The notes under the pieces: model-generated
Told to the model about the DNA's origin: nothing
Database searches by the model: none
What the model saw: the letters and a program-made list of their open reading frames with translations, nothing else
Source of the DNA: Nitrospirota bacterium
Lineage (GTDB): Bacteria > Nitrospirota > Thermodesulfovibrionia > Thermodesulfovibrionales > Dissulfurispiraceae
DNA length: 64,000 nucleotides
Assembly (NCBI GenBank): GCA_963790025.1
Contig: CAWBMP010000004.1
Span: 1,312,001-1,376,000, forward strand
Reading direction: 5' to 3'
Position numbers and translations under genes: made by a program
Shown: in pieces, positions 25,838 to 41,838 of the stretch
Numbering within the stretch: position 1 is the stretch's first letter
Layout of the letters: each line of letters starts with the position of its first letter

Positions 25838-25871
25838 GCCGTTTTCCTAAGCAGTAATTCGGAAAGCGATA

Positions 25872-25932
25872 AGTGTAATGAAGGATATGTTTCCGGAGCG
25901 AATCGCGGAGGAAACATATCCTTCATTACACT
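25872..25932. mobile_element. Short (61 bp) member of a palindromic MITE-like family
   Basis: Perfect 23-bp inverted repeat AGTGTAATGAAGGATATGTTTCC around GGAGCGAATCGCGGA. It shares termini and an internal motif with the copies at 39.4 and 41.3 kb. Confidence 0.85.
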
Positions 25933-25940
25933 GAAACCAA

Positions 25941-26477
25941 TCATTGAATCCGTTTCCAGAAAGATATGGTGTAGTTCACGCCGGAAGTGATCGCAAGCAC
26001 AAGGGCCACATACATAAGGATGAGGCCCACATCGTAAAAATCAACATTGCCGATGCCGCCGGGCAGAAGGAGGAGTACTATAGATACCATCTGCGCGGTA
26101 GTCTTTAGCTTGCCTCCTGTTTCCGCCGGGATGACGATGTCTTTCGACAATGCTACGACCCTTAAGGCAGTGACCACAAATTCCCGCACAATTATTATTA
26201 TCGCGATCCATGCGGAAAGCCTGACCATATCAACTAATAGAATCAGCGCGGAAATAACAAGAAATTTATCTGCGATCGGGTCAAGGATTATGCCGAATTT
26301 CGTTATTTGACCCGATCTTCTTGCCAGGTAGCCGTCTAAAAAATCTGTCAGTGAGGCAATCAGAAAGATGCTGATGCCCAAATACGGACTGCCTGGAGTA
26401 ATAATAACAAAGAAAGGAATAAGAAATATCCTGCTGAAGGTGAGGATTGTGGGTACATTAAACCTGATCGTACGCAT
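25941..26477 (-). CDS. pgsA: CDP-diacylglycerol--glycerol-3-phosphate phosphatidyltransferase
   Basis: CDP-alcohol motif 'TDFLDGYLARR...FGIILDPIADK'. Confidence 0.95.
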   Translation of the reverse strand: MRTIRFNVPTILTFSRIFLIPFFVIITPGSPYLGISIFLIASLTDFLDGYLARRSGQITKFGIILDPIADKFLVISALILLVDMVRLSAWIAIIIIVREFVVTALRVVALSKDIVIPAETGGKLKTTAQMVSIVLLLLPGGIGNVDFYDVGLILMYVALVLAITSGVNYTISFWKRIQ

Positions 26478-27039
26478 CCAGCAATTCGCCCCATTTCCCG
26501 TTCGCTTTTAATATCAGATCGCAAATCTCCCTCACCGCGCCTCTGCCGCCGCGCGCTTTGGTGACAAAAAGGGCCGCCTCCTTAGCCTCTTCAGCCGCAT
26601 CAGCCACAGCAACAGCAAGGCCGACTCTTTTAAACAGCGGAACATCCACAACATCATCCCCGATATAGGCCACTTCTTCAGCCGCAACTCCGAATTTCGA
26701 GAGCAGTTCCTGATAGGCTGTGATTTTGTTGTGAGAGCGCTGGTAGACCTCTGTGATTCCCAGCTCAGAGGCCCGCCTGTCCACAACTTTGGAATTTCTT
26801 CCTGAAATAATCGCAACTTTGACACCGGCCTTTTTGAGCATTACCAGCCCATGCCCGTCGCGGACATTAAACGATTTGAATTCATTGCCTTCGTTATCGA
26901 GAATAATGCCCCCATCCGTAAGCACCCCATCAACATCCAGTACAAGCAGCTTGATCTTACCGGCTATTTTTATTATGCTAAGCGGGATTTTTTCGAGTTT
27001 TGCCGGATGTTTCGTTGCCGGGGCTTTTCGTGCGCCCAC
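26458..27039 (-). CDS. kdsC: KDO-8-phosphate phosphatase (HAD)
   Basis: 'LDVDGVLTDG', 'FNVRDG', 'YIGDD' and 'GGRGAVRE'. Confidence 0.92.
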   Translation of the reverse strand: MGARKAPATKHPAKLEKIPLSIIKIAGKIKLLVLDVDGVLTDGGIILDNEGNEFKSFNVRDGHGLVMLKKAGVKVAIISGRNSKVVDRRASELGITEVYQRSHNKITAYQELLSKFGVAAEEVAYIGDDVVDVPLFKRVGLAVAVADAAEEAKEAALFVTKARGGRGAVREICDLILKANGKWGELLDAYDQV

Positions 27040-28007
27040 TACGCAATCCCCTGCCTGAGTATGTCGTGCAAGTGAATTATGCCTTTTGCCTTTCCCTCGT
27101 CATCAGGCACTGCAAGGGAAGTAATAGATTTCTCCTCCATAATTGCCAGGGCCTTCGCCGCGAGTTCATGTTCAGCAATTGTCTTCGGATTCTTCGTCAT
27201 CACTTCTTCAGCCGTCATATCGAAAAATGATCTGCCCCATTTTTCTATTCCCCTCCTCAAGTCGCCGTCAGTGACAATGCCCTGGATTATCATGTCATTT
27301 GCGCATACAAGCGTTATGCCTAGCCTCTTGTATGATATTTCCATGACCGCTGCTATCATGGGGGTTTCAGGGGAGACCACGGGAAGCGCATCTCCCGTAT
27401 GCATAAGGTCCTTGACCCGGATAAGCAGTTTCTTGCCGAGACTGCCGCCGGGATGAAAAAAAGCGAAATCCTCCTCATTAAATCCTCTCTTTGTCAAAAG
27501 TGCTACGGCAATGGCATCTCCCATCGCCATGGCGGCTGTTGTAGAGGCCGTTGGCACAATACCGAAAGAGCACGCTTCCTCGGCTACAGACACATCAAGG
27601 GCGGCATCAGCGGCTTTAGCCAATGTTGAAGCCGGGTTCCCTGCCAGGGATATCAACCGGACATTGAACCGCTCCAGAAAAGGTAGCAGCCCGACAAGTT
27701 CCTCTGTCTCCCCGCTGTTTGAAAGGGCAATAACAACATCATCAGAAGTGACCATGCCGAGGTCCCCATGCCCCGCTTCGGCAGGGTGCATGAAAAAGGC
27801 CGGCGTGCCGGTTGATGCCAGAGTGGCCGCTATTTTCTTACCCACCAGGCCGGATTTCCCCATGCCGGTGACAACCACCCTCCCCTTGCAGTTGAAGATA
27901 ATATCAACCGCCCTTGCGAACATGCCGTCGAGCTTTCCGATCAGTCCGGCGACCGCACCTGCCTCAATGGTAAAAACTTTTTTTGCAATATCAATTATAT
28001 TGTCCAT
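27039..28007 (-). CDS. kdsD: Arabinose-5-phosphate isomerase (KpsF/GutQ, SIS + 2 CBS)
   Basis: 'GMGKSG', 'HPAEAGHGDLG', 'HPGGSLG' and a CBS pair. Start taken at MDNII. Confidence 0.95.
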   Translation of the reverse strand: MDNIIDIAKKVFTIEAGAVAGLIGKLDGMFARAVDIIFNCKGRVVVTGMGKSGLVGKKIAATLASTGTPAFFMHPAEAGHGDLGMVTSDDVVIALSNSGETEELVGLLPFLERFNVRLISLAGNPASTLAKAADAALDVSVAEEACSFGIVPTASTTAAMAMGDAIAVALLTKRGFNEEDFAFFHPGGSLGKKLLIRVKDLMHTGDALPVVSPETPMIAAVMEISYKRLGITLVCANDMIIQGIVTDGDLRRGIEKWGRSFFDMTAEEVMTKNPKTIAEHELAAKALAIMEEKSITSLAVPDDEGKAKGIIHLHDILRQGIA

Positions 28008-28026
28008 GAAATCCCTTCTCAGATTT

Positions 28027-28482
28027 TTAATCGCATTGCAGCCATGCCGGAGGAATCTTTTTTCTGCGGGCTTCATCCTCGATACGGGCCAGATCTTTCT
28101 CCCTGTCTTTCAGGAGTTTATTAGCATCTATCAGATTGTCCTGAGTTTTCTTTATCTTTCTGTCTATATACTTTTTATCTTTCCCGGTTTCCTTACAGGC
28201 TGCATTCTTAAGATCAGACAGCAAAACTTCTTCCTTATCTATTTCATATTGTGCCTGCCCGATCCTTTTTTTGTAGTAAGCGGACCGCTTGCACCAATAT
28301 TCCTTCTCCGTGTCCTCTTTTGTTTTCGGGGGGTCCTCTTTCCCGCTGTCAGGCTTCGAAGCCTTTGCACCCTGTGCGGTATCATCAGAAGCCGTATCAC
28401 CGGTTGAATGGGCCACGGAAAAAAGACCTAACCACAGAGACACAGAGACGCAGAGATAAAAAATAAAAAGTCTGTGTTTCAT
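28027..28482 (-). CDS. Hypothetical exported coiled-coil protein
   Basis: Signal-peptide-like N-terminus, 'EYWCKR' and C-terminal '[12 protein letters not shown]'. It overlaps the kdsA stop. Confidence 0.65.
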
Positions 28483-29303
28483 TTTTCTTCCTGGGCAAGC
28501 AGGTCATGAATGGCCCGCAACGTTTTCAGTAAAGCTCCCAGACTTTCCAGCGGCAGCATATTCGGTCCATCGCATAGGGCCTTGTCGGGGTCGGGGTGGA
28601 CCTCCATAAACAGACCATCGACACCCACTGCAACAGCGGCCCGCGCAAAAGGCGCCCCGAATTCACGCTGGCCTCCTGAGGCGTTGCCAAGACCGCCGGG
28701 CAGTTGCAGGCTGTGGGTGACATCAAAAATCACCGGATAACCGAAAGAGCGCATGATGGGCAATCCCCTGAAATCCACCACAAGATTATTATAGCCGAAA
28801 GATGTGCCCCTTTCCGTGAGCAGTAGTTGTCTGTTTCCTGTTGATACGAACTTGTCGACAATATGCCTGGCATCCCAAGGAGCAAGAAACTGTCCTTTCT
28901 TGATATTTACAGGCTTGCCTGTTTCGGAGGCGGCAACAATTAAATCGGTCTGCCGGCACAAAAATGCCGGGAGTTGCAACACATCGAGGACGGCAGAAGC
29001 TGTTTTTATCTCCCGGACAGAGTGCACGTCGGAAAGTACCGGTATGCCGAATTTGCGTTTAACTTCCGCCAGTATCGAAAGACCTTTTTCAATTCCAGGA
29101 CCCCTATAGGACGAAACAGAGGTCCGGTTTGCCTTATCATAGGAGCTTTTAAAGATAAAAGGCAGGCCGGCAGCGCTGCATAAGGCCTTCAGCTTCCCGG
29201 CAGTGTAAAAAGTGATGTCTTCATTCTCTATAACGCACGGTCCCGCAATGATTACAGGTAAATTGCCGTTGCCTATGAAAAAAGTCTCTAATTGTATTTC
29301 CAT
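28479..29303 (-). CDS. kdsA: KDO-8-phosphate synthase
   Basis: 'AGPCVIE', 'KANRTS', '[10 protein letters not shown]', 'KKGQF' and 'ALCDGP'. Start taken at MEIQL. Confidence 0.96.
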
Positions 29304-29474
29304 ATGATTGACTGGTGAATGACTGCCCGATTTTTTGTGTATTATATCATTAAAGCGCTTAAATTCATAAATACGGTGTAGCACCGAGAGCGTATTTATG
29401 AATTTAAGCGCTGAGCTATTCTTTGTCAGTGGCGGGGGGACTAATCAGCTTTTTTTCCCCGCCTTCCGGATGGA

Positions 29475-29630
29475 GCAGTCGGCACTTTTCCCATTGTCGG
29501 CATCGGGGCATCCGCCGGAGGGTTGGAGGCGCTGGAGTCAGATCTGCGCCTTGCAAGAGGGGATTTGGAACAGCGCGTTGCAGGACACCAAGCAGAGCTA
29601 AAGAAGATCACCGGGATAAAACAATCATAG
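29475..29630 (+). pseudogene. Remnant of a CheB(-CheR-sensor kinase) fusion gene
   Basis: The frame reads 'FPIVGIGASAGGLEALE' (CheB catalytic Ser motif) joined directly to 'LRLARGDLEQRVAGHQAELKK'. No start codon follows the stop at 29442. Confidence 0.7.
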
Positions 29631-29733
29631 GCAAGTAATGGCTCAATCATTTGACATAATACCCTTACGTCATTAAGGTAGGTAATGTAGTGCTGCGCAA
29701 ACGCTCCGGGATGACTATGACAAGGGGACAAAT

Positions 29734-30357
29734 ATGCTTCATGCGATATATACGTTTTTCATTGCTTTGTCAAATAATTTCGATAATATTGGAGTCAGAA
29801 TTGCATACAGCATTCGTGGAATAAAAATATCTCACTCGATAAATCTTTGGATTTCCGTGATAACATTTTTTATTTCGGGTTTTGCCGCTTATTCAGGCAC
29901 AGTAATATCGGGGTATTTCAGCAAACAACTGTCCGGGATAATTGCCATGGTGCTTCTTTCCGCTATCGGTATATGGATGATAGGGGACGAGTACATAAAA
30001 AGAAGGCGTAATCGTAATCTTGCCGAAAAGTCCACCGAAGAAGATGCAAAAAATATCCTGGATATTCTGGCTAATCCCGAAAAAGCAGATATGGATAAGT
30101 CAAAACATATCGATTTCAAAGAGGCAACTGTACTTGGGATTGCACTCTCAATAAACAATGTTGGTGGAGGATTAAGTGCCGGGATGATCGGTTTAAGCTC
30201 CTTTTGGGTTGGATTGTTATCCGCCGTGATAAGTTTTATTGCCCTTTGGTCGGGAAACTACATTGCCGAATACTTTATAAAGTGGAATATAAGCAATAAA
30301 GCGACAGTTGCAGCGGGTCTTGTACTAATTGGAATCGGGATAGGGCAGCTATTCTAA
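29734..30357 (+). CDS. YtaF/MntP-family membrane protein (putative metal efflux)
   Basis: Duplicated 'ALSNNFDN' / 'ALSINN' motifs and six TM segments. Confidence 0.8.
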   Translation: MLHAIYTFFIALSNNFDNIGVRIAYSIRGIKISHSINLWISVITFFISGFAAYSGTVISGYFSKQLSGIIAMVLLSAIGIWMIGDEYIKRRRNRNLAEKSTEEDAKNILDILANPEKADMDKSKHIDFKEATVLGIALSINNVGGGLSAGMIGLSSFWVGLLSAVISFIALWSGNYIAEYFIKWNISNKATVAAGLVLIGIGIGQLF

Positions 30358-30370
30358 TGTTTTTGAAAAC

Positions 30371-30399
30371 TTGACATTTGGCCCGTCCATCGATAAAAC
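30371..30399 (+). promoter_or_regulatory. Sigma70-type promoter of the cobamide operon
   Basis: TTGACA-17 nt-TAAAAC immediately before the riboswitch. Confidence 0.65.
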
Positions 30400-30401
30400 T
30401 A

Positions 30402-30570
30402 TTTAACTAGGTGCCGAAAGGCTTAATAGGGAATCCCGTGAAGGCGGATAACGCTGATTCGGGAGCGGTCCCGCCGCTGTAACCGGGGACGAAAGTCGAC
30501 GCTGCCACTGGTAGAGATATCGGGAAGGCCGGCAAGTAGAATGATCCGGGAGCCAGAAGACCTGCCAGAC
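30402..30570 (+). ncRNA. Cobalamin riboswitch
   Basis: AGGTGCC...AATAGGGAATCCCGTG...GCGGTCCCGCCGCTGTAA...GCCACTGG...GGGAAGGCC...GAGCCAGAAGACCTGCC (B12 box), upstream of the cob genes. Confidence 0.95.
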
Positions 30571-30692
30571 AAACTAGTGTCAGTGTCAGTTTTAAGTGTC
30601 GGGGAAAAGTTTCATCTGCCACTAATGACAGACATTATTCACTAATAAGGCCTTCTCGCGGACGGAAGGCGGGGATGAAGGAATCAGGGTGC

Positions 30693-30729
30693 AATCCTCA
30701 AGACATTTTGTCTTGGGGATTTTTTGTTT
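30693..30729 (+). terminator. Leader terminator/attenuator of the riboswitch
   Basis: ATCCTCAAGACA-TTT-TGTCTTGGGGAT hairpin followed by TTTTTGTTT, just before the bzaF RBS. Confidence 0.8.
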
Positions 30730-30741
30730 GAGGAGGGTGGC

Positions 30742-32043
30742 GTGACACAATTAGAAAGAGCGGCAAAGGGAGAAGTTACAAAAGAGATTGCAACGGTCGC
30801 GGCAGCCGAAGGGCTTTCCGTTGATGTTGTAAGGGAAAATGTTGCAGCAGGGAAAATAGTCATTCCAGCCAACAGGAACCGTTTAAAAAGAACCATAGGT
30901 ATCGGTAAGGGTCTGAGGACCAAAGTAAATGCGTCAATCGGGTCCTCCACGGATATCGCGGATGTCGGGATGGAAGTGGAAAAAGCCGAGATTGCTGAAA
31001 AATACGGCGCGGACACTCTGATGGACCTAAGCGTCGGCGGCAATATATCCGGCATCAGAAAAGCGGTGATGGATGCAATAAGCCTTCCGGTAGGCACGGT
31101 CCCTCTGTACGAGGCCTTTGCAATTGCTATTGAAAAGTACGGCGCTGCTGTCAACATGCCTGCAGAACTCCTTTTTGAGATTACCGAAAAGCAGTGCGCA
31201 GAGGGGGTCGCCTTTATGGCAATCCACTGCGGCATCAACAGAAAAACAGTCGAAATGCTCAGGAAACAGCATTACCGTTACGGCGGCCTTGTCTCAAAGG
31301 GAGGTTCCTATATGGTTGCATGGATGGAGCACAACAAAAAGGAAAACCCCCTATATGAGCATTTCGACAGGGTAGTGGATATTCTTAAAAAGTACGACAC
31401 GGTACTGAGCCTGGGCAACGGTTTTCGGGCCGGCGCCATTCATGATGCAACCGACAGGGTGCAAATACAGGAACTGCTCATAAACTGCGAACTTGCAGAA
31501 CTGGGCAGGGAGCGGGGATGCCAGACAATGGTTGAAGGCCCCGGTCATGTGCCGATTAACGAGATAGAGGCGAATGTCATCATGGAAAAGAAGATGAGCG
31601 GCGAATCCCCTTTTTACATGCTGGGTCCGATTACGACCGATATAGCACCTGGCTACGACCATATCACCGCCGCAATAGGCGCAGCACTTTCATCTGCGTA
31701 CGGTGCGGACTTTATCTGCTATGTTACCCCTTCCGAGCACCTGGGACTCCCTTTTCCGGAAGATGTGCGCGAGGGCGTCATCGCATCCCGGATCGCAGCA
31801 CACATTGGAGACATGATAAAGCTCAAGAACACGGATGCCGACAAGTCAATGGCAAAGGCAAGAAGGGACATGCAATGGCAGACCCAGTTCTCTTTGTGCA
31901 TCGATGCCGAAAGGGCAAGAGAAATTAAGAGCAAGAGAGGAAACGGCAGTGACCACTCCTGTACCATGTGTGGAAAGTTTTGTGCGAATGATATACTTAA
32001 AGATATGTTTACCGGCAACATGAAGGGGTCCGATAAGCATTAA
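30742..32043 (+). CDS. bzaF: ThiC-like radical SAM enzyme, probably 5-hydroxybenzimidazole synthase BzaF
   Basis: ThiC-family motifs ('TKVNASIG', 'MDLS', 'EGPGHVP', 'YVTPSEHL', 'CTMCGKFC'). It is the first gene under the B12 riboswitch, followed by cobU/T/S/C. GTG start after GAGGAGG. Confidence 0.8.
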   Translation: MTQLERAAKGEVTKEIATVAAAEGLSVDVVRENVAAGKIVIPANRNRLKRTIGIGKGLRTKVNASIGSSTDIADVGMEVEKAEIAEKYGADTLMDLSVGGNISGIRKAVMDAISLPVGTVPLYEAFAIAIEKYGAAVNMPAELLFEITEKQCAEGVAFMAIHCGINRKTVEMLRKQHYRYGGLVSKGGSYMVAWMEHNKKENPLYEHFDRVVDILKKYDTVLSLGNGFRAGAIHDATDRVQIQELLINCELAELGRERGCQTMVEGPGHVPINEIEANVIMEKKMSGESPFYMLGPITTDIAPGYDHITAAIGAALSSAYGADFICYVTPSEHLGLPFPEDVREGVIASRIAAHIGDMIKLKNTDADKSMAKARRDMQWQTQFSLCIDAERAREIKSKRGNGSDHSCTMCGKFCANDILKDMFTGNMKGSDKH

Positions 32044-32571
32044 ATGGAGAATAGCGGAGGAAGGATTGTTCTTATTCTCGGGGGCGCCAGGAGCGGTAAG
32101 AGCGGTTTCGCCCTGAAAACAGCATCCGGCATTCCGGGCAGGAAGGCATTTATTGCCACGGCACAGGCCCTGGATGCCGAGATGGAGCAAAGGATAGCAC
32201 GGCATAAGGCGGCTCGTCCCGATGAGTGGCAAGTATATGAGGAGCCGGTAAACATACGGGACCTGATTGCAAGAATTCACGGAAGCTACGATGTGCTTCT
32301 TGTTGACTGTCTTACCCTCTGGATTTCCAACCTCATGCTTGGAAACGACGATGTTGAAGACAGAGCACGGTCGTTCATCGATACCCTTTCCGCCTGCCGG
32401 TCATCGGTCTTTATAGTGTCAAACGAGGTTGGTCTGGGAATTGTCCCTGATAACAGGCTGGCACGTGAATTCAGGGATGCTGCAGGCACGTTGAACCGGA
32501 TGCTTGGTGAAGTGGCGGATGAGGTATATTTCGTGGTAGCAGGATTGCCGATCAGGATGAAACCGAGGTAA
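32044..32571 (+). CDS. cobU: Adenosylcobinamide kinase/guanylyltransferase
   Basis: 'GGARSGKS', 'RIARH', 'DCLTLW' and 'SNEVGLG'. Confidence 0.96.
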   Translation: MENSGGRIVLILGGARSGKSGFALKTASGIPGRKAFIATAQALDAEMEQRIARHKAARPDEWQVYEEPVNIRDLIARIHGSYDVLLVDCLTLWISNLMLGNDDVEDRARSFIDTLSACRSSVFIVSNEVGLGIVPDNRLAREFRDAAGTLNRMLGEVADEVYFVVAGLPIRMKPR

Positions 32572-32630
32572 AACCAAGGTATAAGCATAGGCAAAGGTAA
32601 AGGTAAAGACTAACCTCTACCTCTACCTTG
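32570..32630. repeat. Degenerate hexamer repeat hairpin (AGGTAA-like)
   Basis: aggtat aagcat aggcaa aggtaa aggtaa ... taacct ctacct ctacct. It shares AAAACCAAGGTA with the 18.65 kb copy. Confidence 0.7.
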
Positions 32631-32649
32631 TATTTATGGGAGGTCGTGT

Positions 32650-33711
32650 ATGGATATGCTGAGCAGTACTGTCAGTAAGATTGCAGAGATTAACGAGGAG
32701 TTGTATGAGGTCGCGCAGAAACGCCTCGACAACCTAACAAAGCCTCCAGGCAGCCTCGGCAGGCTGGAAGAATTTGCACGAAGGCTTGTGGCTATAACCG
32801 AAAGCAATAGCCCCATGCTGGACAAGAAGGTGATTTTCACCTTTGCCGGGGACCACGGCATCACCGAAGAAGGGGTATCTGCCTATCCGAAAGAAGTTAC
32901 CCAGCAAATGGTGCTGAACTTTATCAGAGGCGGGGCGGGCATCAATGTGCTTGCACGCCACGCGGGGTCGGAAGTGGTTGTGGTGGATATCGGCGTTGAT
33001 TATGACTTCAAAGAGCTTGAGGGACTTATGCAGATGAAGGTTGTAAGAGGAACAAGAAATTTTGTCAAGGGCCCTGCGATGACAAAAGAAGATGCTGTTA
33101 AATGTATCGAAACCGGCATTACGCTTGCACAGGGATATGCGATAAAAGGATATAAGATATTCGGTACCGGAGACATGGGAATCGGCAATACCACTCCTTC
33201 AAGTGCCATTGCTGCGGTACTTACGGGCAAAACGGTAGCGGCAGTCACAGGCAAAGGCACCGGTATCAGCGATGCTTCGCTCAGGCAGAAGATCAAGGCA
33301 ATTGAAAAAGGCATCAAGGTAAATACGCCCGATCCGAAAAACGCTGTTGACGTGCTTTCAAAGGTCGGCGGGGCTGAGATTGGGGGTATTGCCGGGTTGA
33401 TACTTGGCGCCGCGGCAAACAGGATCCCTGTAATAATTGACGGGTTGATCTCGACTGCCGGCGCCATGATTGCGTATACCATCGAACCGAAGGTAAAAGG
33501 TTACCTGTTCGCAGCCCATAACTCGGTGGAAATAGGCCATAAGGCGATGCTCGATGCAATAGGACTACAGCCTATTCTCGACCTGAATCTCAGGCTCGGT
33601 GAAGGCACGGGGGCAGCGCTTGCCATGTTTATGATTGAGGCGGGACTCAAAATATACAGGGAAATGGCGACCTTCGGGGAGGCCGGGGTGAGTGACGAGA
33701 TAGTCAATTAG
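32650..33711 (+). CDS. cobT: Nicotinate-nucleotide--benzimidazole phosphoribosyltransferase
   Basis: '[12 protein letters not shown]', 'GDMGIGNTT' and 'LRLGEGTGA'. Confidence 0.96.
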
Positions 33712-34524
33712 ATGAAACAGATGCTGCTTGCGATTCAATTTCTTACCATCATACCGGTAAAGGTAAAGGGCACTTGCTCCGAGGAGGAGTTAGCGCGTTG
33801 CACCTCTTTTTTCCCCATTGCAGGCGCTCTGCAGGGCATTTTTATGGCGCTTACCGCTTTTGCCGTAATGCGCATATTCCCCGTCGAGATAACAAGCAGT
33901 TTTGTGATCCTTGTTCTTTTGCTGTCTAACGGCGGGTTCGACCTGGACGGGCTGATTGATACCTTTGATGCACTGGCTGTCAAGTCAACTGGAGACAGGG
34001 AACGTGACCGGGAAAAGCGGCTTTCGGTTATGAAGGAAAGTTCAATAGGAGCGGTCGGGGCAATTGCATTGGTTATGACAGTGCTTTTGAAATTTGTGCT
34101 GCTTAATCATCTGTTCCGTGTCCTTACGCATGTGGCGGTGCTTTCATTCCTTTTCATCATCCCGGTCTTCTCGAAGTGGGTAACGGTAATTGCCATGCTT
34201 CACGGCCGCCCTGCGCGTCAAGACGGTCTCGGACGCATCTTTATCGGCAGAGTGCGCAATAGACAGGTGATTTTTTCTTCAATAATTGTGTTCCTTCTGT
34301 ATGCGGTTGTTGCCGGACTGTATCTTTATCCACTGTACGGTATGCGGATAATAGTCCTGTTTGATTTACTGTTCATAATGCTCTACCTGCTGGCCGTCAT
34401 AGCAGTACGCTTTGCTATCAGGAAGTTCGGCGGCCTCACCGGAGATCATTTCGGGGCACTCAGTGAAATTGCAGAAATACTTTTATTGGCGGCTATACCT
34501 GTATGGTTACAACACTCTACCTGA
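33712..34524 (+). CDS. cobS: Cobalamin synthase
   Basis: 'QFLTIIP', 'DGLIDTFD' and 'GGLTGD', multi-TM. Confidence 0.93.
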   Translation: MKQMLLAIQFLTIIPVKVKGTCSEEELARCTSFFPIAGALQGIFMALTAFAVMRIFPVEITSSFVILVLLLSNGGFDLDGLIDTFDALAVKSTGDRERDREKRLSVMKESSIGAVGAIALVMTVLLKFVLLNHLFRVLTHVAVLSFLFIIPVFSKWVTVIAMLHGRPARQDGLGRIFIGRVRNRQVIFSSIIVFLLYAVVAGLYLYPLYGMRIIVLFDLLFIMLYLLAVIAVRFAIRKFGGLTGDHFGALSEIAEILLLAAIPVWLQHST

Positions 34525-35138
34525 TAAGACATGGAGAAACAATAGGGAGCGATGCAAAACGCTACAAGGGTAGCATCGATGTACCACTCTCCGAGCGGGG
34601 CATTGCGCAGATAAAAAAAGTATCGGTCTTTATCGCTGAAAAGCTGAAGCTCTCTGCGGTATACTGCTCCGGGCTGAGCAGGGCGGCGAAGAGCGCAGAG
34701 ATAATAGCCGAACCACATGGCCTGAAGCCGATGGTCATCCACGAGTTCCGCGAAAGAAACTTCGGTCTATGGGAAGGAATGACGTTCAGTGAAATAAAGG
34801 AGATGTACCCTGCCGAGTTCGAAGGTTGGGCGTCCGATCCTCTAAGGCACAGTCCGATAAACGGCGAGAGCACAATCGAGGTATATGAAAGGGTAATCGG
34901 GACACTCGACAGCATTGTGAGCAAACATACAGCGGAAAGCGATGATCAGAATCCAGTGGCCGACAACATTGCTGTTGTTGCCCACGGTGGCGTGAACAGA
35001 ATAATCCTTTGCCATCTTATGGGGGTTCCCCTTGAAAATTTCTTCAGGATCGAACAGGACCACGCTGGAGTCAATATCATTGAATTCTGGGAACGCTACC
35101 CCGTAATAAAATTACTGAACGGAGGACCTGTTGGCTAA
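34503..35138 (+). CDS. cobC: Alpha-ribazole phosphatase (histidine phosphatase)
   Basis: 'LIRHGET', 'ERNFGLWEG' and 'AHGG', in operon context. Confidence 0.88.
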   Translation: MVTTLYLIRHGETIGSDAKRYKGSIDVPLSERGIAQIKKVSVFIAEKLKLSAVYCSGLSRAAKSAEIIAEPHGLKPMVIHEFRERNFGLWEGMTFSEIKEMYPAEFEGWASDPLRHSPINGESTIEVYERVIGTLDSIVSKHTAESDDQNPVADNIAVVAHGGVNRIILCHLMGVPLENFFRIEQDHAGVNIIEFWERYPVIKLLNGGPVG

Positions 35139-36642
35139 GGCATTGATGGTGCAGGGAACAGGCTCCGGGGCAGGCAAGAGCCTCATTGCCGCTGCCCTGT
35201 GCAGGATTTTCAGGGACAAGGGGGTGAATGTCGCACCATTCAAGGCGCAGAACATGGCGCTAAACTCCGCAATAACACGGGACGGCGGGGAGATGGGAAG
35301 GGCGCAGATACTGCAGGCAGAGGCCGCAAGGGTGGAGCCCACCGTCGATATGAACCCCATATTACTGAAGGCATCGGGCGAGATGGGCTCGCAGGTCATC
35401 ATTCAGGGTAAAGTCCATTCATGTATGAAAGCCCGGGAATACTATGGCTTTAAGAAGACAGCCTGGGAGGCAGTCAAACAATCTTTCGACCATCTGTCAC
35501 GGCAGTACGAACTTATTGTGCTGGAAGGCGCCGGAAGTCCTGCGGAAATAAATCTCATGAATGTGGATATCGTAAATATGGCTGCTGCAAGATATGCGAA
35601 AGCCCCCGTGCTCCTGGTCGGTGATATCGACAAGGGTGGCGTTTTCGCTTCACTTTACGGCACTGTCAAACTCCTCGGCAATCAGAGCAGGCTTGTAAAA
35701 GGGTTTATCATAAATAAATTCCGTGGAGACCCGGCAATTCTCGCTCCGGGGCTCGACATGATACAGGACAAGACGGGAAAACCCGTTGTCGGGGTGCTGC
35801 CGTATATTTACGACATTGGTCTTCCGGAAGAGGACGGTCTCTCACTCCAGAAAATTTCAAATTTCAAGCCTCGAATCTCAAATATCGAAATGATTAAAGT
35901 TGTTGTGGTCAGGCTAAAATACATATCTAATTTCACGGATTTCGATCCGCTCCAGCACGAGCCCGATGTAGAACTCATTTACTCCTTAAATCCTGCCGAC
36001 ATAGAAAACGCCGACCTCGTTATCATTCCGGGTTCAAAAAATACAGTCAAAGATCTCCTGTCCCTGAAAGAACACGATCTTGATGCCAGCATAAAGCGGG
36101 CGCATGCAAAGGGCATCCAGATTATAGGTATTTGCGGCGGATACCAGATGTCAGGCAAAAAGATTTTTGACCCTTACAGCGTTGAAAGCAGCAATAAAGC
36201 TGTTGACGGACTCGGATTGCTGAACATAGAGACCACGTTCGGGAAAAAGAAAACGACATGCCAGGCAGAGGCGGAATTAATTGATGCTGCTGTGACAGGG
36301 AATTCATTGTTTTCACATCTACGCGGTTATGAAATTCATATGGGAGAAAGCACAGGGGACATCGGTGTATTTAAACTAAAAAGATTTTCCTCAAACGACG
36401 AAAGCCTGGCGCTGGAAGGCTCAAGGAATAATAACTGTTGGGGAACATATCTTCACGGCATTTTCGAGAACGATTTATTCAGAAGAAGCCTTCTCAACAT
36501 GGTCCGGACTCAAAAAGGGCTGCCTCCGTTAACCGATGCCCGCTCATATGGCGCAATAAAAGAAAAAGCACTTAACGCACTTGCCGACATCGTCAGGGAG
36601 CACCTTGACATGAAATTTATTGAGAGACTGGCCGGCCTATGA
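35131..36642 (+). CDS. cobQ: Cobyric acid synthase
   Basis: 'QGTGSGAGKS', 'PFKAQNM', 'EGAGSPAEIN', 'GICGGYQM' and 'GTYLHG'. Confidence 0.96.
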   Translation: MAKALMVQGTGSGAGKSLIAAALCRIFRDKGVNVAPFKAQNMALNSAITRDGGEMGRAQILQAEAARVEPTVDMNPILLKASGEMGSQVIIQGKVHSCMKAREYYGFKKTAWEAVKQSFDHLSRQYELIVLEGAGSPAEINLMNVDIVNMAAARYAKAPVLLVGDIDKGGVFASLYGTVKLLGNQSRLVKGFIINKFRGDPAILAPGLDMIQDKTGKPVVGVLPYIYDIGLPEEDGLSLQKISNFKPRISNIEMIKVVVVRLKYISNFTDFDPLQHEPDVELIYSLNPADIENADLVIIPGSKNTVKDLLSLKEHDLDASIKRAHAKGIQIIGICGGYQMSGKKIFDPYSVESSNKAVDGLGLLNIETTFGKKKTTCQAEAELIDAAVTGNSLFSHLRGYEIHMGESTGDIGVFKLKRFSSNDESLALEGSRNNNCWGTYLHGIFENDLFRRSLLNMVRTQKGLPPLTDARSYGAIKEKALNALADIVREHLDMKFIERLAGL

Positions 36643-37676
36643 CAATGATGCCAGTGATGCCAATGATGATAGCACCGCTGCAGCTTCTACTTGCATTTTC
36701 CCTGGACCTGCTGATCGGAGACCCCTTGTGGCTCCCTCATCCTGTAAGGACCATCGGCAAGTGCGTCAGCAGGCTGGAACGTTTTTTAAGGGCCCGCGCC
36801 ACCTCTCCGTCGGACGAAAGGAGGGCTGGAATCCTCCTCGTGCTGCTGATTGCTATACCGGCATTCCTGATAACATTTTTCATCCTTGCAATTATAAGGT
36901 TGTTGCCCGGTACTGCCGGATCATTAGCAGGGATGGCTGTAGTTATCTATCTTACCGCAACAACACTGGCAATCCGCGAGCTTGTCACATCCTCACAGGC
37001 TGTCATCCATCGGGTAAAGGAGGGAGACATTGAAAAGGCCAGGCACAACCTCAGCATGATCGTGGGACGGGACACACAGGACCTCTCCGGGAAGGATATT
37101 CTGAAAGCGACTATGGAGACTCTTGCCGAAAACCTTTCCGACGGATTCATCGCCCCTCTCTTTTATCTGGTAATTGGAGGTCTGCCACTCGCCATTACCT
37201 ATAAGGCAATCAATACGCTGGACTCTATGGTAGGATATAAGAACGACACATACCGGTATTTCGGCTGGGCAGCAGCCCGCTCCGACGATATTGCAAATTA
37301 TCTGCCTGCCAGGTTCACCGGCATATTGATAGTTTTTGCGGCATTTCTTGTTTCGCTGTTTAAAAACACCGCCCGGGCGTTCGCCTCTGCATGTTGTTCC
37401 TTCACTACTATGCGCCGCGATGGTAATAAACATCTTAGTCCCAATAGCGGCATACCCGAGGCTGCCATGGCAGGCGCACTTGGTATCATGATGGGAGGGC
37501 CATCAAGTTATGGGGGGGTTATAGTTGAGAAACCCTGGATCGGAGAAGCCGGGACAACGGTGGCTGTAGAAGATTATATTACTGCCTCTGAAAAAGCAAT
37601 CGGCATAGCTAAAATCACCTCTTTGCTCGGCATTGGTATCTCGGTGTTGATTTTAGCTGCGAGGAGGGTACCTTAA
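36639..37676 (+). CDS. cbiB: Adenosylcobinamide-phosphate synthase
   Basis: 'GDP..LPHPV', 'IVGRDT', 'AENLSDG', 'NTLDSMVGY' and 'SPNSG'. Confidence 0.95.
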   Translation: MTMMPVMPMMIAPLQLLLAFSLDLLIGDPLWLPHPVRTIGKCVSRLERFLRARATSPSDERRAGILLVLLIAIPAFLITFFILAIIRLLPGTAGSLAGMAVVIYLTATTLAIRELVTSSQAVIHRVKEGDIEKARHNLSMIVGRDTQDLSGKDILKATMETLAENLSDGFIAPLFYLVIGGLPLAITYKAINTLDSMVGYKNDTYRYFGWAAARSDDIANYLPARFTGILIVFAAFLVSLFKNTARAFASACCSFTTMRRDGNKHLSPNSGIPEAAMAGALGIMMGGPSSYGGVIVEKPWIGEAGTTVAVEDYITASEKAIGIAKITSLLGIGISVLILAARRVP

Positions 37677-38764
37677 TGCAAGGGTCGCATGGCGGAAATA
37701 TTTACCGGGCTGCCGAAAAGCTGGGAGTAAACGAGTACGAAATAATTGATTTCAGTGCTTCCATCAACCCTCTCGGCGTTCCTAAAAGTGTGTTATCCGG
37801 CATAAAGGATTCGATGAGATACCTCTATAACTATCCCGACCCCGATGCAAAGCAATTCACGCGCGCCCTTGCCGGGCACTTTGCAATCAACCCGGAATCC
37901 ATCCTTTGCGGAAACGGCAGCACAGAACTCATTTACCTCGTCATTAGGGCCCTAAAACCGGAAAGAATACTCATCCCGGCTCCCACATTCTCGGAATACG
38001 AGCAGGCGGCGGGCGATGGCAGGGAAATCGTCCATTACGCGCTCAACGCAAGGGACAACTTTGCAGTAAACCCGGACTCATTCATCGCCGCGATGGCCGG
38101 AGGCTCTGACTCAACGTCTTACAAGACTTCGCTCACAACTTCTGTCGATATGACATTTTTATGTAATCCGAACAATCCTACCGGGGGCATAACAAGAAAG
38201 ACCGATATGCTGAAAATAGCCGAGGCCGCGCGGGAACTTAAATGTCACCTCGTTATTGATGAAGCATTTATTGATTTTACACCTGATGAGTCACTGATAA
38301 ACGAGGTTGAGGACAACCCCTACCTTATTGTTCTCAGGTCCCTGACAAAGTTCTATGCCCTTTCAGGCTTGAGGGTCGGATACGGTGTTTTCCCGCTGAC
38401 GCTGATAGATACAATAAGAAAGCACAAGGAACCGTGGACAGTGAATACGCTTGCACAAGTGGCGGGGATTGCCGCACTCAAAGACGAGACATATAAAGAA
38501 GACGCATTCAAAATCATAAAAAACGAGAGAAAAACCCTCGAAGACGGATTCAGGCTATTGAAGATACCTTATTTCCCGTCGGCTGCCAATTTTTATCTCA
38601 TACAATTCGATAAGACCCGGGACGTTATCAACGCCCTCAGTGAAAAGGGTATTCTTTTAAGAGATTGCTCGAATTTCAGAAACCTTGACGGATCGTATGC
38701 CAGGGTAGCGGTAAAATCGAACCGCGATAACATGCGACTGCTGAAGGAAATGGCAAACATATGA
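37676..38764 (+). CDS. cobD: L-threonine-O-3-phosphate decarboxylase
   Basis: 'HGGN', 'DFSASINPLG', 'CNPNNPTG' and PLP Lys in 'SLTKFYALSGLRVGY'. Confidence 0.93.
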   Translation: MQGSHGGNIYRAAEKLGVNEYEIIDFSASINPLGVPKSVLSGIKDSMRYLYNYPDPDAKQFTRALAGHFAINPESILCGNGSTELIYLVIRALKPERILIPAPTFSEYEQAAGDGREIVHYALNARDNFAVNPDSFIAAMAGGSDSTSYKTSLTTSVDMTFLCNPNNPTGGITRKTDMLKIAEAARELKCHLVIDEAFIDFTPDESLINEVEDNPYLIVLRSLTKFYALSGLRVGYGVFPLTLIDTIRKHKEPWTVNTLAQVAGIAALKDETYKEDAFKIIKNERKTLEDGFRLLKIPYFPSAANFYLIQFDKTRDVINALSEKGILLRDCSNFRNLDGSYARVAVKSNRDNMRLLKEMANI

Positions 38765-40227
38765 ACAGCCTAGTAATAGCGGGCACACATAGCGGCTGCG
38801 GCAAAACAACCGTAACCCTTGGGCTTCTCGCTGCACTCAAAAAAAAGGGGTTGGAGGTCCAGCCGTTCAAGGCAGGGCCTGATTTCATAGATACAGGGCT
38901 TCACCGCCTCATTACCGGCAGGCCTTCAAGAAACCTGGACCTGTGGATGTGTGGGGAAAAAGCCGTGTTTGAGTGCTTCAAAACGCACACGGCCCATGCT
39001 GACATAGCTGTTATCGAAGGAGTCATGGGGATGTATGACGGAGATTTCAGCACCGCAGATCTGGCGTCCATTCTAGGTCTGCCTACAGTCCTTGTTGTCG
39101 ACGCATACGGAATGGCGGAAAGTGCCGGGGCGATTGTCAGAGGCTTTGCCTCTTCCGCGCTGCTTGCCGGCGTTATTTTCAACCGCGTGGCGTCGGATAC
39201 CCACTATGAAAGACTTAAAAGCAGTGTCCGCGATGTCCCAGTTTTAGGATATCTGCCAAGGGACCTGGATTTCGAGATGCCGCATCGTCATCTTGGTCTC
39301 GTCGTTGCCGAGGAAATACCCATCGGCGCGGATCGTATCGACAAGCTTGCAGATACTGTATTAAGTCATATCGATATCAATGCAGTTGTTTCGCTATGTC
39401 AGCAGTGTAATGAAGGATGTGTCTCTGTAGCGAATCGCGGAGTCTTGCAAACAGTTCTCGGCGAAGAGAGCGTTAAACAGTCGCAATGTTTGAGCTCGCA
39501 GAGCGAGTTTTGCGACTGTAGCGAACGAGCCGTTAGAACTGTCAAGACGGAGCGTCTGAGCGTAAGAGACATATCCTTCATTACACCACCGCACGTTCTA
39601 AAACTGGCGGTTGCTTATGACAAGGCGTTCTGTTTTTATTATGTAGATAATCTGGACCTCCTCAGGGAGGCCGGAGCCGAAATTGTTTTCTTCAGCCCTC
39701 TTTCCGACCATCAGGTCCCTGCAGACTCGGATGCCCTCTATATAGGGGGCGGATATCCGGAATTATACGCTGAAGCTCTTTCCGGCAACTCCTCTATGCT
39801 TGCTTCCGTAAATGCCTGGGCCAGTTCAGGCAAGCCGGTCTATGCCGAATGCGGCGGCCTCATGTATCTTTCAAAAGGCATCCATGATTTCGATGATAAC
39901 TTTTTTAGAATGGCAGGAGTATTCCCTTTTAAGACACAAATGAGGAAAGGGAGGTCACATCTGGGATACAGGGAAATAATGCTCGAAAAAGACTGTATTC
40001 TTGGTAAAAAAGGGGACAGGCTCAGGGGACATGAATTCCACTATTCGGAGATCGTTGATAGCGCTTTAGCCCTTAATCGTATATATTCAGTCTGCGACAA
40101 GTTCGGCCAGGAGCTTCCGGACGAAGGCTACCTGTTTAAAAATACTCTTGCAAGTTATGTTCACCTTCACTTTGCAGGCAACAGGCCAGTTGCAGAAAGT
40201 TTTATAACACACTTAAAGGAGAAATAA
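38761..40227 (+). CDS. cbiA: Cobyrinate a,c-diamide synthase carrying an in-frame ~61-aa element insertion
   Basis: 'SGCGKTT', 'FKAGPDFID', 'EGVMG', 'GGGYPE', 'AECGG' and 'GHEFHYS', with extra sequence in the interdomain linker. Confidence 0.95.
   Translation: MNSLVIAGTHSGCGKTTVTLGLLAALKKKGLEVQPFKAGPDFIDTGLHRLITGRPSRNLDLWMCGEKAVFECFKTHTAHADIAVIEGVMGMYDGDFSTADLASILGLPTVLVVDAYGMAESAGAIVRGFASSALLAGVIFNRVASDTHYERLKSSVRDVPVLGYLPRDLDFEMPHRHLGLVVAEEIPIGADRIDKLADTVLSHIDINAVVSLCQQCNEGCVSVANRGVLQTVLGEESVKQSQCLSSQSEFCDCSERAVRTVKTERLSVRDISFITPPHVLKLAVAYDKAFCFYYVDNLDLLREAGAEIVFFSPLSDHQVPADSDALYIGGGYPELYAEALSGNSSMLASVNAWASSGKPVYAECGGLMYLSKGIHDFDDNFFRMAGVFPFKTQMRKGRSHLGYREIMLEKDCILGKKGDRLRGHEFHYSEIVDSALALNRIYSVCDKFGQELPDEGYLFKNTLASYVHLHFAGNRPVAESFITHLKEK
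39404..39586 (+). mobile_element. Palindromic MITE-like element inside cbiA
   Basis: Termini AGTGTAATGAAGGATGTGTCTCT ... AGAGACATATCCTTCATTACAC, with internal homology to 41347-41536 in the opposite orientation. Confidence 0.9.
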
Positions 40228-40234
40228 CCCCGGT

Positions 40235-41299
40235 ATGGATGAGAGCATTATACTTATAGGCCATGGCAGCCCGAGAAAAGACGCAAACAACCTCGAACTA
40301 ATAGCGACAATGCTGCACAGCATGCTTCACCCAGGATGCAGCAGCGAGTGCGTAACGTCTTCCTATCTTCAATTCGCAGAGCCCGATATTATGAAGACCA
40401 TTAAGGGCAGCATAGAGAGCGGCGCAAAGAGGATTATCCTTCACCCCTTCTTTCTGAATGCCGGGATGCACGTTACCAAAGATATTCCCGAATTGATCAA
40501 AGAGGCCGGGGAGTTGTTCCCAGGCGTGGAATTTATTTACACGGAGCCGCTCGGCATACACGAAAAACTGGTCCAGATAGTTATGGAGCGCATCAGCTCA
40601 GCATCGGTCTGTTCCCGAAAAGGCACAGACTTTTCAGCGTTAGACAGCAAATTGGCCCCTGAAGAGATAGAAAGAAAGAGTTTTGAAATACTCTCGGAGG
40701 AACACGACTTGAGCAGTGTTCCGTACGATCAGCTTCCGATAATCCAGCGGGTCATCCATGCTACTGCCGATTTCGAATTCAAAGAAACACTTGTCTTTCA
40801 TCCTGATGCGGTTGCTGCCGGTATCAAGGCGATAAGAGAAGGTAAAAACATTCTTACTGATGTCGAGATGGTCAGGACCGGTATCAACAAACGGCTTCTT
40901 GACCGATGGGGGGGCAAGGTTGTTTGCGCCATTGCGGATGAACACGTGGCCCGTGAATCAAAAGAAACAGGCAGAACGCGTGCTGAAATTGCCATTGAGA
41001 AAAGAATCGGTGAGAACGTCGGAATCATCGCTGTCGGCAATGCTCCGACCGCCCTTTTGCGTGTTATAGAACTCCTCAGGGACACTTGCTGCTCATCGAC
41101 GGCCCCTTATAATTGCCATGGGGCGCCTCTGGTAATCGGCGTGCCGGTGGGTTTTGTGAAGGCGTTCGAGTCAAAAGCCATACTTGCAGGACAGGAGTTC
41201 CCGTTTATAACAAATCTGAGCAGAAAAGGCGGGACACCCGTTGCTGTAGCGATTGTGAATGCACTGCTCAAGATGGCTTCGGAGGGGAGTACAGAATGA
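40235..41299 (+). CDS. cbiC: CbiX (cobaltochelatase)-CbiC (precorrin-8X methylmutase) fusion
   Basis: N-terminal 'IGHGSP...PFFLNAGMHVTKDIP...PLGIH', then 'IERKSF...RVIHATAD...GNAPTAL...PVGFV...KGG'. Confidence 0.92.
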   Translation: MDESIILIGHGSPRKDANNLELIATMLHSMLHPGCSSECVTSSYLQFAEPDIMKTIKGSIESGAKRIILHPFFLNAGMHVTKDIPELIKEAGELFPGVEFIYTEPLGIHEKLVQIVMERISSASVCSRKGTDFSALDSKLAPEEIERKSFEILSEEHDLSSVPYDQLPIIQRVIHATADFEFKETLVFHPDAVAAGIKAIREGKNILTDVEMVRTGINKRLLDRWGGKVVCAIADEHVARESKETGRTRAEIAIEKRIGENVGIIAVGNAPTALLRVIELLRDTCCSSTAPYNCHGAPLVIGVPVGFVKAFESKAILAGQEFPFITNLSRKGGTPVAVAIVNALLKMASEGSTE

Positions 41300-41838
41300 T
41301 ACGGAGAAACGGCGACACTGGAACACGGCAAATCTGCAAATCATACAGTGTAATGAAGGCTGTGTCCCTTCCGCTCAGGCGCTCCGTCTTGACAGTTCTA
41401 ACGGCTCATTCGCTACAGTCGCAAAACTCAACTACTACCGCAAAAAATCTTCGATATTTTCGGGGACCCCTGACTTCGCCGAGAACTATTTGCATGACTC
41501 CTCGATTCGCTCCAGAGAAACATCCTTCATTACACTTATTGTGTTGCAGTTTGCTGTTTCTTTTACTGCTTACTTATTACTGTTTACTGCCTGCTCCTGT
41601 TTCTGCCTCCGATAAATGGCAAGGGGTTGATGAATCGGTTGTCGAGAAATACGCCAAAGAGCATGGCAGAGAAGCGGTTAAACCATTGATCAACATTGAA
41701 CAGGGAGACCTCCCCCTCTTTTTGTTTCTCCTTGCAGGGACCGCTGGAGGATTTGCAGCAGGATATTACTGGAGAAAACTTACTGAACCAGGTGACGGGA
41801 ATAAAACAAAAGGGGCAAAGGAGGGTCCCCAAAAGTAA
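41296..41838 (+). CDS. CbiN-like small membrane component of the cobalt ECF transporter; N-terminus contains the element
   Basis: C-terminal 'WQGVDESVVEK...GDLPLFLFLLAGTAGGFAAGYYWR'. The ATG at 41296 overlaps the cbiC stop (ATGA), and cbiQ/cbiO follow. Confidence 0.65.
   Translation: MIRRNGDTGTRQICKSYSVMKAVSLPLRRSVLTVLTAHSLQSQNSTTTAKNLRYFRGPLTSPRTICMTPRFAPEKHPSLHLLCCSLLFLLLLTYYCLLPAPVSASDKWQGVDESVVEKYAKEHGREAVKPLINIEQGDLPLFLFLLAGTAGGFAAGYYWRKLTEPGDGNKTKGAKEGPQK
41347..41536 (-). mobile_element. Palindromic MITE-like element, inverted relative to the cbiA copy
   Basis: AGTGTAATGAAGGCTGTGTC ... GAAACATCCTTCATTACACT, 190 bp. Confidence 0.9.

Follow-up and report, generated by a model that had tools for sequence, protein, structure and literature searches.

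Hairpin-shaped miniature elements of a Thermodesulfovibrionia genome, probably mobilized in trans, with one copy in frame in cbiA and one at the site of a lost cbiM

INTRODUCTION

Fusion of a MITE (miniature inverted-repeat transposable element) in frame with a host gene is described for Rickettsia palindromic elements (RPEs), ERIC, the 107-bp Correia form and others in PMC2229807 and PMC10969869; as fusions of this kind are already described in several bacterial families, the phenomenon is not new. Here we analyzed a 64,000-nt stretch of a Nitrospirota genome (GenBank assembly GCA_963790025.1, contig CAWBMP010000004.1, positions 1,312,001 to 1,376,000; hereafter the window), in which a first-pass annotation made from the letters had picked out three copies of a palindromic repeat, two of them in cobalamin genes, and had called the family RPE-like. 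The repeats are very probably hairpin-shaped type II MITEs that make a target-site duplication of ~9 bp and were most likely moved in trans by a DDE insertion sequence, with one copy in frame in cbiA and another at the place of a lost cbiM.

RPEs and the Nitrospirota MITE are both palindromes of ~100–190 bp with terminal inverted repeats, a long stem-loop and open frames, and both can sit in frame in conserved enzyme genes and leave these intact (for RPEs, see PMC2229807 and PMC10969869). However, the lineages are unrelated, and the two are likened by description, not by sequence. Insertion in genes is frequent among RPEs, but the Nitrospirota MITE is mostly intergenic; moreover, the latter has a recognizable duplication and parent insertion sequence, both of which a table in PMC2229807 marks as unknown for RPEs. 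Correia/NEMIS, ERIC and further bacterial MITEs whose transcripts form long hairpins also have terminal repeats, target-site duplications, a place in short intergenic operon spacers and a stable hairpin if transcribed. Some of their subtypes carry open frames fused to genes (PMC2229807), and RNase III processing of the hairpins is reported for Correia elements (PMC10969869). These elements duplicate TA and have other termini, whereas the Nitrospirota MITE makes a duplication of ~9 bp and ends in CTGCAATTCAGACAGT.

In the definition found in the review PMC10969869, a type II MITE and its insertion sequence have nothing but the terminal repeats in common. Type II MITEs of the IS4 superfamily (DDE_Tnp_1) resemble the present element in that the terminal repeats alone are common to it and the autonomous element, in the matching 9-bp duplication and in the occurrence of several unrelated interiors. 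They differ in that the parent here falls below all NCBIfam cut-offs, has an extra small open reading frame (ORF; DUF6788 in 3/5) and was not found in the MITE-bearing genus. REPIN/RAYT systems likewise have long hairpin repeats with pairing kept by compensatory change, but the Nitrospirota MITE has a target-site duplication, DDE-type termini and no linked RAYT gene.

No description of MITEs in the Nitrospirota/Thermodesulfovibrio lineage was found in a literature search. The mobile family reported here is real and multi-copy; it belongs to a known kind of element, and the in-frame event in cbiA is likewise of a known kind. Beyond Rickettsia and the enterobacteria, it provides a clean comparative case in which a MITE has stayed in the reading frame of a conserved enzyme while species diverged; no major view is changed by it.

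RESULTS AND DISCUSSION

Copies of the element in the window and in the genome

All three copies lie where the first-pass annotation had placed them and carry the inner termini and the internal GCGAATCG(C/A)GGAG motif that it reported; a 23-bp inner repeat was also found in each. The copy in cbiA is a full-length core in '+' orientation (39404..39587), corresponding to CbiA residues 215–276. The copy in '-' orientation at 41334..41549 measures 216 bp with its degenerate outer terminal repeats, the core noted earlier being 41347–41536. The short form, in the pgsA–plsY spacer (25851..25932, no strand assigned), is composed of a 61-bp hairpin at 25872–25932 and a degenerate left outer terminal repeat at 25851–25871. 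Elements of the family range from 61 to 216 bp, and there is no transposase gene inside them.

The analyzed genome, of 3.45 Mb, is called G000 below, related genomes G001–G009 and so on, and L-numbers denote compared loci. The sequence GTGTAATGAAGG occurs 16 times in G000 (9 forward, 7 reverse), compared to once for a reversed-pattern control, an abundance far above chance, and nearly always in inverted pairs spaced 61–63 or 180–190 bp apart. A copy census, in which a profile built from ten full-length copies was run on G000, returned 11 full-length copies (E <= 2.5e-50), about six partial ones (C4:1198510-1198633, C5:584467-584568, C4:63204-63367, C4:860029-860109 and two weak matches) and four short hairpin forms, one of which is window 25872–25932; together they are spread over three contigs. 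The further copies that the first-pass annotation had anticipated were thus found, both in the genome (the 11 full-length copies and their derivatives) and in relatives.

Upon folding, a 184-nt copy formed a single long imperfect hairpin (-96.2 kcal/mol, z = -10.2, with 0/200 shuffles equally stable), and the 61-nt copy, folded as DNA, formed a near-perfect one (z = -11.4). Most copies in G000 occupy short spacers, 3–73 nt from the flanking ORFs, and one sits in the 5ʹ leader of a gene for a CooC/ParA-like ATPase. The mean pairwise identity was 0.81 among G000 copies, compared to 0.97 among those of G002. In G000 the family is old and inactive, its copies being ~81% alike and their outer ends decayed.

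True ends, target-site duplication and subfamilies

The true ends lie ~13 bp outside the termini noted earlier, in an outer inverted repeat, CTGCAATTCAGACAGT, and the complete element measures ~195–215 bp. The shared flanks ATAAGTGT...ACACTG described in the first-pass annotation are real, but they belong to the outer region of the element, whose ends had been set too far in. Young copies in G002 extend outward to ...CTGCAATTCAGACA|GTGTAATG...CATTACAC|TGTCTGAATTGCAG. The outer repeat is present in copies of G002, G005, G004 and G001, and remnants of it persist at the 41334–41549 copy (CTGCAAATCATACA at 41334–41347 and TTGCAG ending at 41549). Allowing at most one mismatch, the outer 13-mer TGCAATTCAGACA was counted 80 times in G001, 68 in G002, 38 in G004, 13 in G005 and 6 in G000, compared to 1–2 for controls. 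The possibility that this outer palindrome is a separate insertion target was rejected: the empty palindrome (AATTCAGAC..GTCTGAATT) gave 0 matches in five genomes, indicating that the element includes the outer repeat.

In the sister genomes, at least 8 of the 9 flanking bases were repeated directly in 15/23 copies with intact ends, whereas pairing the left flank of one copy with the right flank of another gave such a repeat in 1/506 combinations. This difference indicates that the family makes a target-site duplication of ~9 bp.

Several subfamilies were recognized. Subfamily B lacks the GTGTAATGAA segment and has the same outer ends, and the ends of a third subfamily, which occurs in other genera, have diverged (..CCAAATCCAGCGATAAGGAT). 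The same terminal repeat and duplication also bound a second MITE, whose interior is unrelated, as expected if one transposase serves several MITEs.

As a separate observation, copies of subfamily B from three species (L117–L122 and L128; G005, G002 and G004) are 95% identical, compared to 76–80% for host genes, which suggests recent spread between species or strong constraint.

Spread in relatives, with filled and empty sites

The core was found in 23/68 genomes and 11/24 genera of the family, and in 13/41 relatives. Two sites were informative when filled and empty states were compared. The first is the spacer between plsY, encoding glycerol-3-phosphate acyltransferase (25199..25837, - strand; Pfam PF02660, E 2e-51), and a pgsA-like gene for a CDP-alcohol phosphatidyltransferase (25941..26477, - strand; Pfam PF01066, E 1.6e-43), the two genes that flank the short copy in the window. 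In this spacer, G004 has a full-length copy of 182 bp and G000 the 61-bp form; the spacer is empty in G006, and a different hairpin element occupies it in G007. The G004 copy has the same odd left end as the short copy of G000, indicating that the 61-bp hairpin arose by internal deletion in place. The second site, C4:1508856, is empty in G002, G006 and G007 and has another MITE a few bases away in G004. Empty orthologous sites, which the first-pass annotation had proposed to look for, therefore exist for both. It is also evident that several MITE families reuse short spacers beside gene starts.

Other hairpin MITEs of the genus include one family of ~95 bp with ends CGGTTTCGTAAAAAG, one of ~190 bp with ends GTGCTTCAGTTCATAAAT and a ~185-bp element with CTGCAATTCAGACAGT ends and an unrelated interior. 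Their loci are L299 (the plsY–pgsA spacer of G007), L308 (G004), and L138 285-467 and L140 301-484 (G002); L308 is the 5ʹ end of the G004 orthologue of G000:C4:1508816-1509778.

A candidate mobilizer

The family had been described as non-autonomous, with no mobilizer in the window, and this was borne out; none was found in G000 or in the genus either. When public genomes were scanned for the 16-nt terminus, most hits were chance matches and MITE copies, and in addition there were inverted pairs 2.2–2.5 kb apart. Locus L172 (2244 bp) has the same termini and a perfect 9-bp flanking duplication, AAAGCATTG, and L180 (2463 bp) has the same termini; each encodes a ~130-aa DUF6788 ORF and a DDE_Tnp_1 transposase of 520–590 aa. 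Complete elements of 2.27–2.40 kb, with 0–2 mismatches in the 16-nt termini, were further found in L280 (same order) and in L283 and L284 (same class), L283 having a flanking duplication of 9–10 bp. The transposases of all five loci, 516–590 aa long, contain DDE_Tnp_1, and DUF6788 is present in the small ORF of L172, L180 and L280, not in that of L283 or L284. The Pfam DDE_Tnp_1 scores of the parent transposase, 33–53 bits, exceed the cut-off of 23. A transposase bounded by the termini of the MITE, as the first-pass annotation had envisaged, thus exists in other Thermodesulfovibrionia and was not found in the genus.

By protein search, homologues of this transposase occur in 10/301 genomes of the class, with none in 53 sampled genomes of the family to which the window belongs and none in G000. 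A search of a plasmid collection gave no match, and metagenomes contained at least 2178 relatives at E <= 1e-20, mostly on contigs of 2–3 kb. No autonomous element bounded by the inner termini was found in G000, G002, G004 or G005, where all the inverted pairs are ~60–250 bp apart. A search for DUF6788 in five genus genomes found 0/5, a weak result, as control genomes gave none either. On the basis of the shared ends, we consider it most likely that the MITE is mobilized in trans by the DDE transposase of such an insertion sequence. The finding links an abundant insertion-sequence group (DDE_Tnp_1, with a DUF6788 ORF in 3/5) to its MITEs, and this accounts for breaks in the assemblies of Thermodesulfovibrionia genomes and for their repeat-rich spacers.

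Two sets of candidates were set aside. Among the PF01609 transposases of five genus genomes (13 matches), none had similar ends, and loci L137–L142, in which the outer repeats are unpaired or widely spaced, contained no transposase, only other MITEs. The DUF6788 ORFs themselves (L172 4181-4573, L180 2040-2450, L280 2976-3437) lie upstream of the transposase and have a Cys/His-rich stretch; a literature search found no paper mentioning DUF6788.

The copy in cbiA

The cbiA gene (38761..40227, + strand), which encodes cobyrinate a,c-diamide synthase of 488 aa with the Pfam domains CbiA (4–178) and GATase_3 (282–474), is intact. Its translation is free of stops, and the 488-codon ORF continues uninterrupted across the MITE, which forms codons 215–276, in frame, in the linker between the two domains. 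All invariant columns of a 31-sequence alignment are retained in the protein. The linker is hypervariable, with total CbiA lengths of 444–543 aa among 33 Thermodesulfovibrionia sequences, and the MITE junction lies eight residues after a conserved H-I/V-D-I motif.

The same junction holds a longer '-' copy in G005 and a '-' copy without its right half in G007, so that the linker is filled by the MITE in 3/8 genus genomes; it is not filled in G003, G004, G006 and G009, and in G001 there is an unrelated insert. Linker lengths are 255 nt in G000, 294 nt in G005 and 144 nt in G007; relative to G000, G005 differs by +39 nt and G007 by -111 nt, each a multiple of three. The frames are open in all three MITE-filled ORFs. 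In G007, what is left of the copy is unable to fold into the hairpin, yet it keeps the frame, which argues for translation and against removal at the RNA level.

The AlphaFold2 model of CbiA, computed from the 31-sequence alignment, had a mean predicted local distance difference test score (pLDDT) of 83 and a predicted template modeling score (pTM) of 0.82. The pLDDT was at least 90 over most of both domains and below 50 at residues 219–275 and, elsewhere, only at 177–184. Low values are to be expected at alignment gaps, and all that the model says is that nothing in it contradicts a surface loop. A search of the Protein Data Bank gave no solved CbiA homologue at E <= 1e-5. One 257-nt contig of sequencing run X1 reads across the left junction of the cbiA copy with identical sequence, and no joint bypasses the element; contigs of this run cover parts of the stretch, and the run may be the source sample, which would not be independent support. 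We infer that the insert is translated as a disordered loop of ~61 residues that the enzyme tolerates, and the interdomain linker of CbiA would accordingly accept 24–74 foreign residues.

Certain peptide strings, such as SFPLVGN..SSEGL..RTSRND and PLHSRKAS..DCPGFTGAAVESGLSPTS, recur in the CbiA linkers of L005, L008, L028, L029, L035, L038, L041, L043, L045, L051 and L074. These strings look like other translated repeats.

The copy at the lost cbiM

Downstream of cbiA, a cbiX–cbiC fusion gene (40235..41299, + strand; Pfam CbiX, CbiC) ends with a stop that overlaps the next ATG (ATGA). This ATG, at 41296, opens a chimeric ORF of 180 codons (41296..41838, + strand), which is followed by cbiQ and cbiO, for the T and A components of an energy-coupling factor (ECF) transporter (41838..43444, + strand; Pfam PF02361, PF00005). 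The chimeric ORF begins with 12 codons from the former cbiM start, continues with 72–73 MITE codons and ends in a CbiN-like small membrane protein, with a hydrophobic segment and a DKWQGVDESVVEKYAKEHGRE... body, whose similarity to CbiN is sub-threshold (E 0.011–0.065). In G005 and G009, cbiM lies between cbiXC and the CbiN-like gene, and its start in these genomes is at exactly the position of ATG 41296, overlapping the cbiX–cbiC stop; cbiM is missing there in G000.

A GGAGG is present upstream of ATG 41296 and no Shine-Dalgarno-like motif was found before the TTG codons downstream of MITE 41334–41549, which makes it more likely that translation of this ORF would run through the MITE than that it would start downstream. 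The missing duplication and the missing cbiM together suggest a deletion or recombination involving the element, and the loss of cbiM was probably MITE-associated. Only a frameshifted cbiN remnant is left in G007 (L083 3143-3262), and in four other genomes both genes are missing from the interval between cbiXC and cbiQ. The cbiM–cbiN cobalt-uptake genes are thus decaying in the genus, a decay with which MITE-associated rearrangement seems to go. G000 has a stand-alone cbiM elsewhere, at C3:66381-67145 (L092 2882-3646), beside a TonB-dependent receptor gene.

Two copies had been said in the first-pass annotation to be translated in frame inside cobalamin genes. For cbiA this is correct; the second copy lies in a chimeric ORF where cbiM was lost. 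One in-frame fusion in the cobalamin cluster is therefore solid (cbiA), and the other is arguable (the CbiN-like ORF).

Weighing the proposed course of events

We propose that a hairpin type II MITE without coding capacity of its own, ending in CTGCAATTCAGACAGT and making a ~9-bp duplication, would be moved in trans by the DDE_Tnp_1 transposase of a 2.2–2.5 kb insertion sequence. In the G000 lineage, the outer ends would have decayed and internal deletions would have yielded hairpins of 61–63 bp. One copy would have inserted in the CbiA linker, between the ATPase and glutamine-amidotransferase domains, to be read as a tolerated loop, and another would now link, in one reading frame, the former cbiM start codon with the hydrophobic N-terminus of the CbiN-like gene.

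Several observations weigh against this proposal. No target-site duplication was found at the three window copies or elsewhere in G000, so that the absence recorded in the first-pass annotation holds for the window and this genome, although not for the family, and the cbiA copy has no recognizable outer terminal repeats. The lack of duplication at the window copies fits their age, given the mean identity of 0.81 and the mere remnants of outer repeats. The mobilizer was not found in G000 or in four other genus genomes in the family search, or three in the protein search. As no such transposase was found in the genus, mobilization in trans is argued from the shared termini only. Insertion sequences are often absent from metagenome-assembled genomes. 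Further, the parent transposase scored below every curated NCBIfam cut-off for an insertion-sequence family, IS4 included (IS4_1/IS4_2 17–33 bits, cut-offs 115–152), with similarly low scores for IS1380, IS701 and IS982. The history in cbiA is also not simple: the G000 copy is oriented opposite to those of G005 and G007, and in the CbiA tree G005 groups with G007 (100/99), and G000 is the first to branch off (82/91). Orientation and tree together point either to one old insertion, with a flip between its inverted ends and losses in other lineages, or to two insertions at one nucleotide; the sequences would fit either. Finally, strong covariation along the whole hairpin and a preference for G·U over A·C on one strand, described below, are not needed by a DDE cut-and-paste element; these features hint at an added function and suggest selection on one single strand, perhaps RNA.

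A one-strand signal in the hairpin

Alignment A1 comprised 45 copies from G000, G001, G002, G004, G005, G007, G021 and G023, with 45 consensus pairs; its window parts are 39415–39577 and 41358–41525. The 223-bp variants L099, L103 and L104, which the profile match did not span, and the weak, partial L134–L136 were left out. Across the 45 consensus pairs, 97.4% of cells were paired, and 28/45 pairs had changes on both sides, compared to 13.9 +/- 1.7 in shuffles (0/500 reaching the observed value) and 3–9 in slid controls. On the '+' strand, defined by GAGCGAATCGCGGAG near its 5ʹ end, there were 89 G·U and 12 A·C cells; parsimony on the copy tree gave 49 changes to G·U and 12 to A·C, and every variant common to at least four copies was G·U. 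The '+' strand folded better than the '-' strand in 45/45 copies (mean -13.2 kcal/mol) and in 20/20 further copies from seven genomes outside the first set (mean -16.3 kcal/mol), that is, in 65/65. The '+' strand had 2.2 GAGCG motifs per copy and the '-' strand none; since GAGCG stands on both arms, it is a direct and not an inverted motif.

These data lend some credit to a rather unlikely alternative, that the conserved hairpin core of ~150 nt has a function of its own as a single-stranded molecule, most likely an RNA from the '+' strand (one that acts in processing, in stability or in protein binding, for instance), with the terminal repeats providing nothing but mobility; to call the element a MITE would then be correct only as far as it goes. 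In a variant of this idea, which we hold to be just as doubtful, transposons would carry the core either as a structured RNA or as a single-strand-specific signal in DNA, selection would act on its pairing on one strand only, and in-frame survival in cbiA would be a by-product. Besides the double changes, the G·U excess, the better folding of '+' and the GAGCG motif, such a role would suit the retention of the core with at least three different terminal sequences across the family. Speaking against it, the copies share ancestry, so that the counts are not independent, deleted forms persist, and copies of G000 between co-directional genes lie 2 '+' and 5 '-' relative to host transcription, which is no bias. 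Rfam covariance models gave no match to the element in window 25000–42500 (E <= 1), where a cobalamin riboswitch was the only hit, nor in six loci of other subfamilies, in agreement with the first-pass annotation, which had not recognized the family. The one-strand G·U bias bears on whether bacterial MITE hairpins are selected as RNA; if the core were such an RNA, the MITE would be the vehicle of a functional RNA module and not a mere deletion remnant.

How often copies lie in frame

The likeness to RPEs proposed in the first-pass annotation implies a family that lives by in-frame insertion in protein genes, as protein-coding palindromes. At first sight G000 agrees with this, with in-frame fusion in 2–3 of the 11 full-length copies (cbiA, the CbiN-like ORF and possibly a signal-peptide gene at C4:1508856). 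At least one frame is open across the element in 11/11 full-length copies of G000 and 31/40 copies sampled elsewhere, and two '-' frames are open in 20/45 and 23/45 copies, compared to ~9% in shuffles. However, a frame open to both ends of the ~450–520-bp locus was found in 0/40 sampled copies from other genomes (the 40 exclude L113–L116, 8-kb loci in which the position of the element does not fit the assumption of the test), the frame used in cbiA of G000 is open in just 6/45 copies, and most G000 copies occupy spacers, as described above. The terminal repeat of the element is, in addition, of the DDE type, and the element duplicates its target site. This MITE family does not habitually reside in frame, and we regard the RPE-like reading as very improbable.

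Least credible of all is that a RAYT (Y1/HUH) transposase moves the element as a REPIN-like doublet: the long imperfect hairpin, the 11 Y1_Tnp (PF01797) matches in G000, eight of them in open frames of 306–333 aa, and a one-strand selection that would suit a single-stranded DNA mechanism are outweighed by the 9-bp duplication, which HUH transposition does not make, by termini identical to those of the DDE insertion sequence, by the lack of any Y1_Tnp gene within 10 kb of a G000 copy and by G001, which has about 40 copies of the outer repeat and no Y1_Tnp match. The Y1_Tnp matches are at C5:249450, C2:671964, C2:673191, C4:1215216, C2:336999, C5:56404, C4:1525625, C4:751959, C4:1309644, C5:305484 and C4:1210660, and one of them lies ~2 kb upstream of the window.

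Other features

In G004, the MITE core also occurs within a larger multi-copy repeat of ~700–800 bp (L113 3470-4272, L114, L115 and L116). One copy of this larger repeat is broken by an IS3-family element (orfA/orfB, L113 4313-5775), which is an unrelated insertion. The cobalamin riboswitch of the window (RF00174, 108 bits, full length) is located at 30392–30583 on the + strand, upstream of the cbi/cob cluster.

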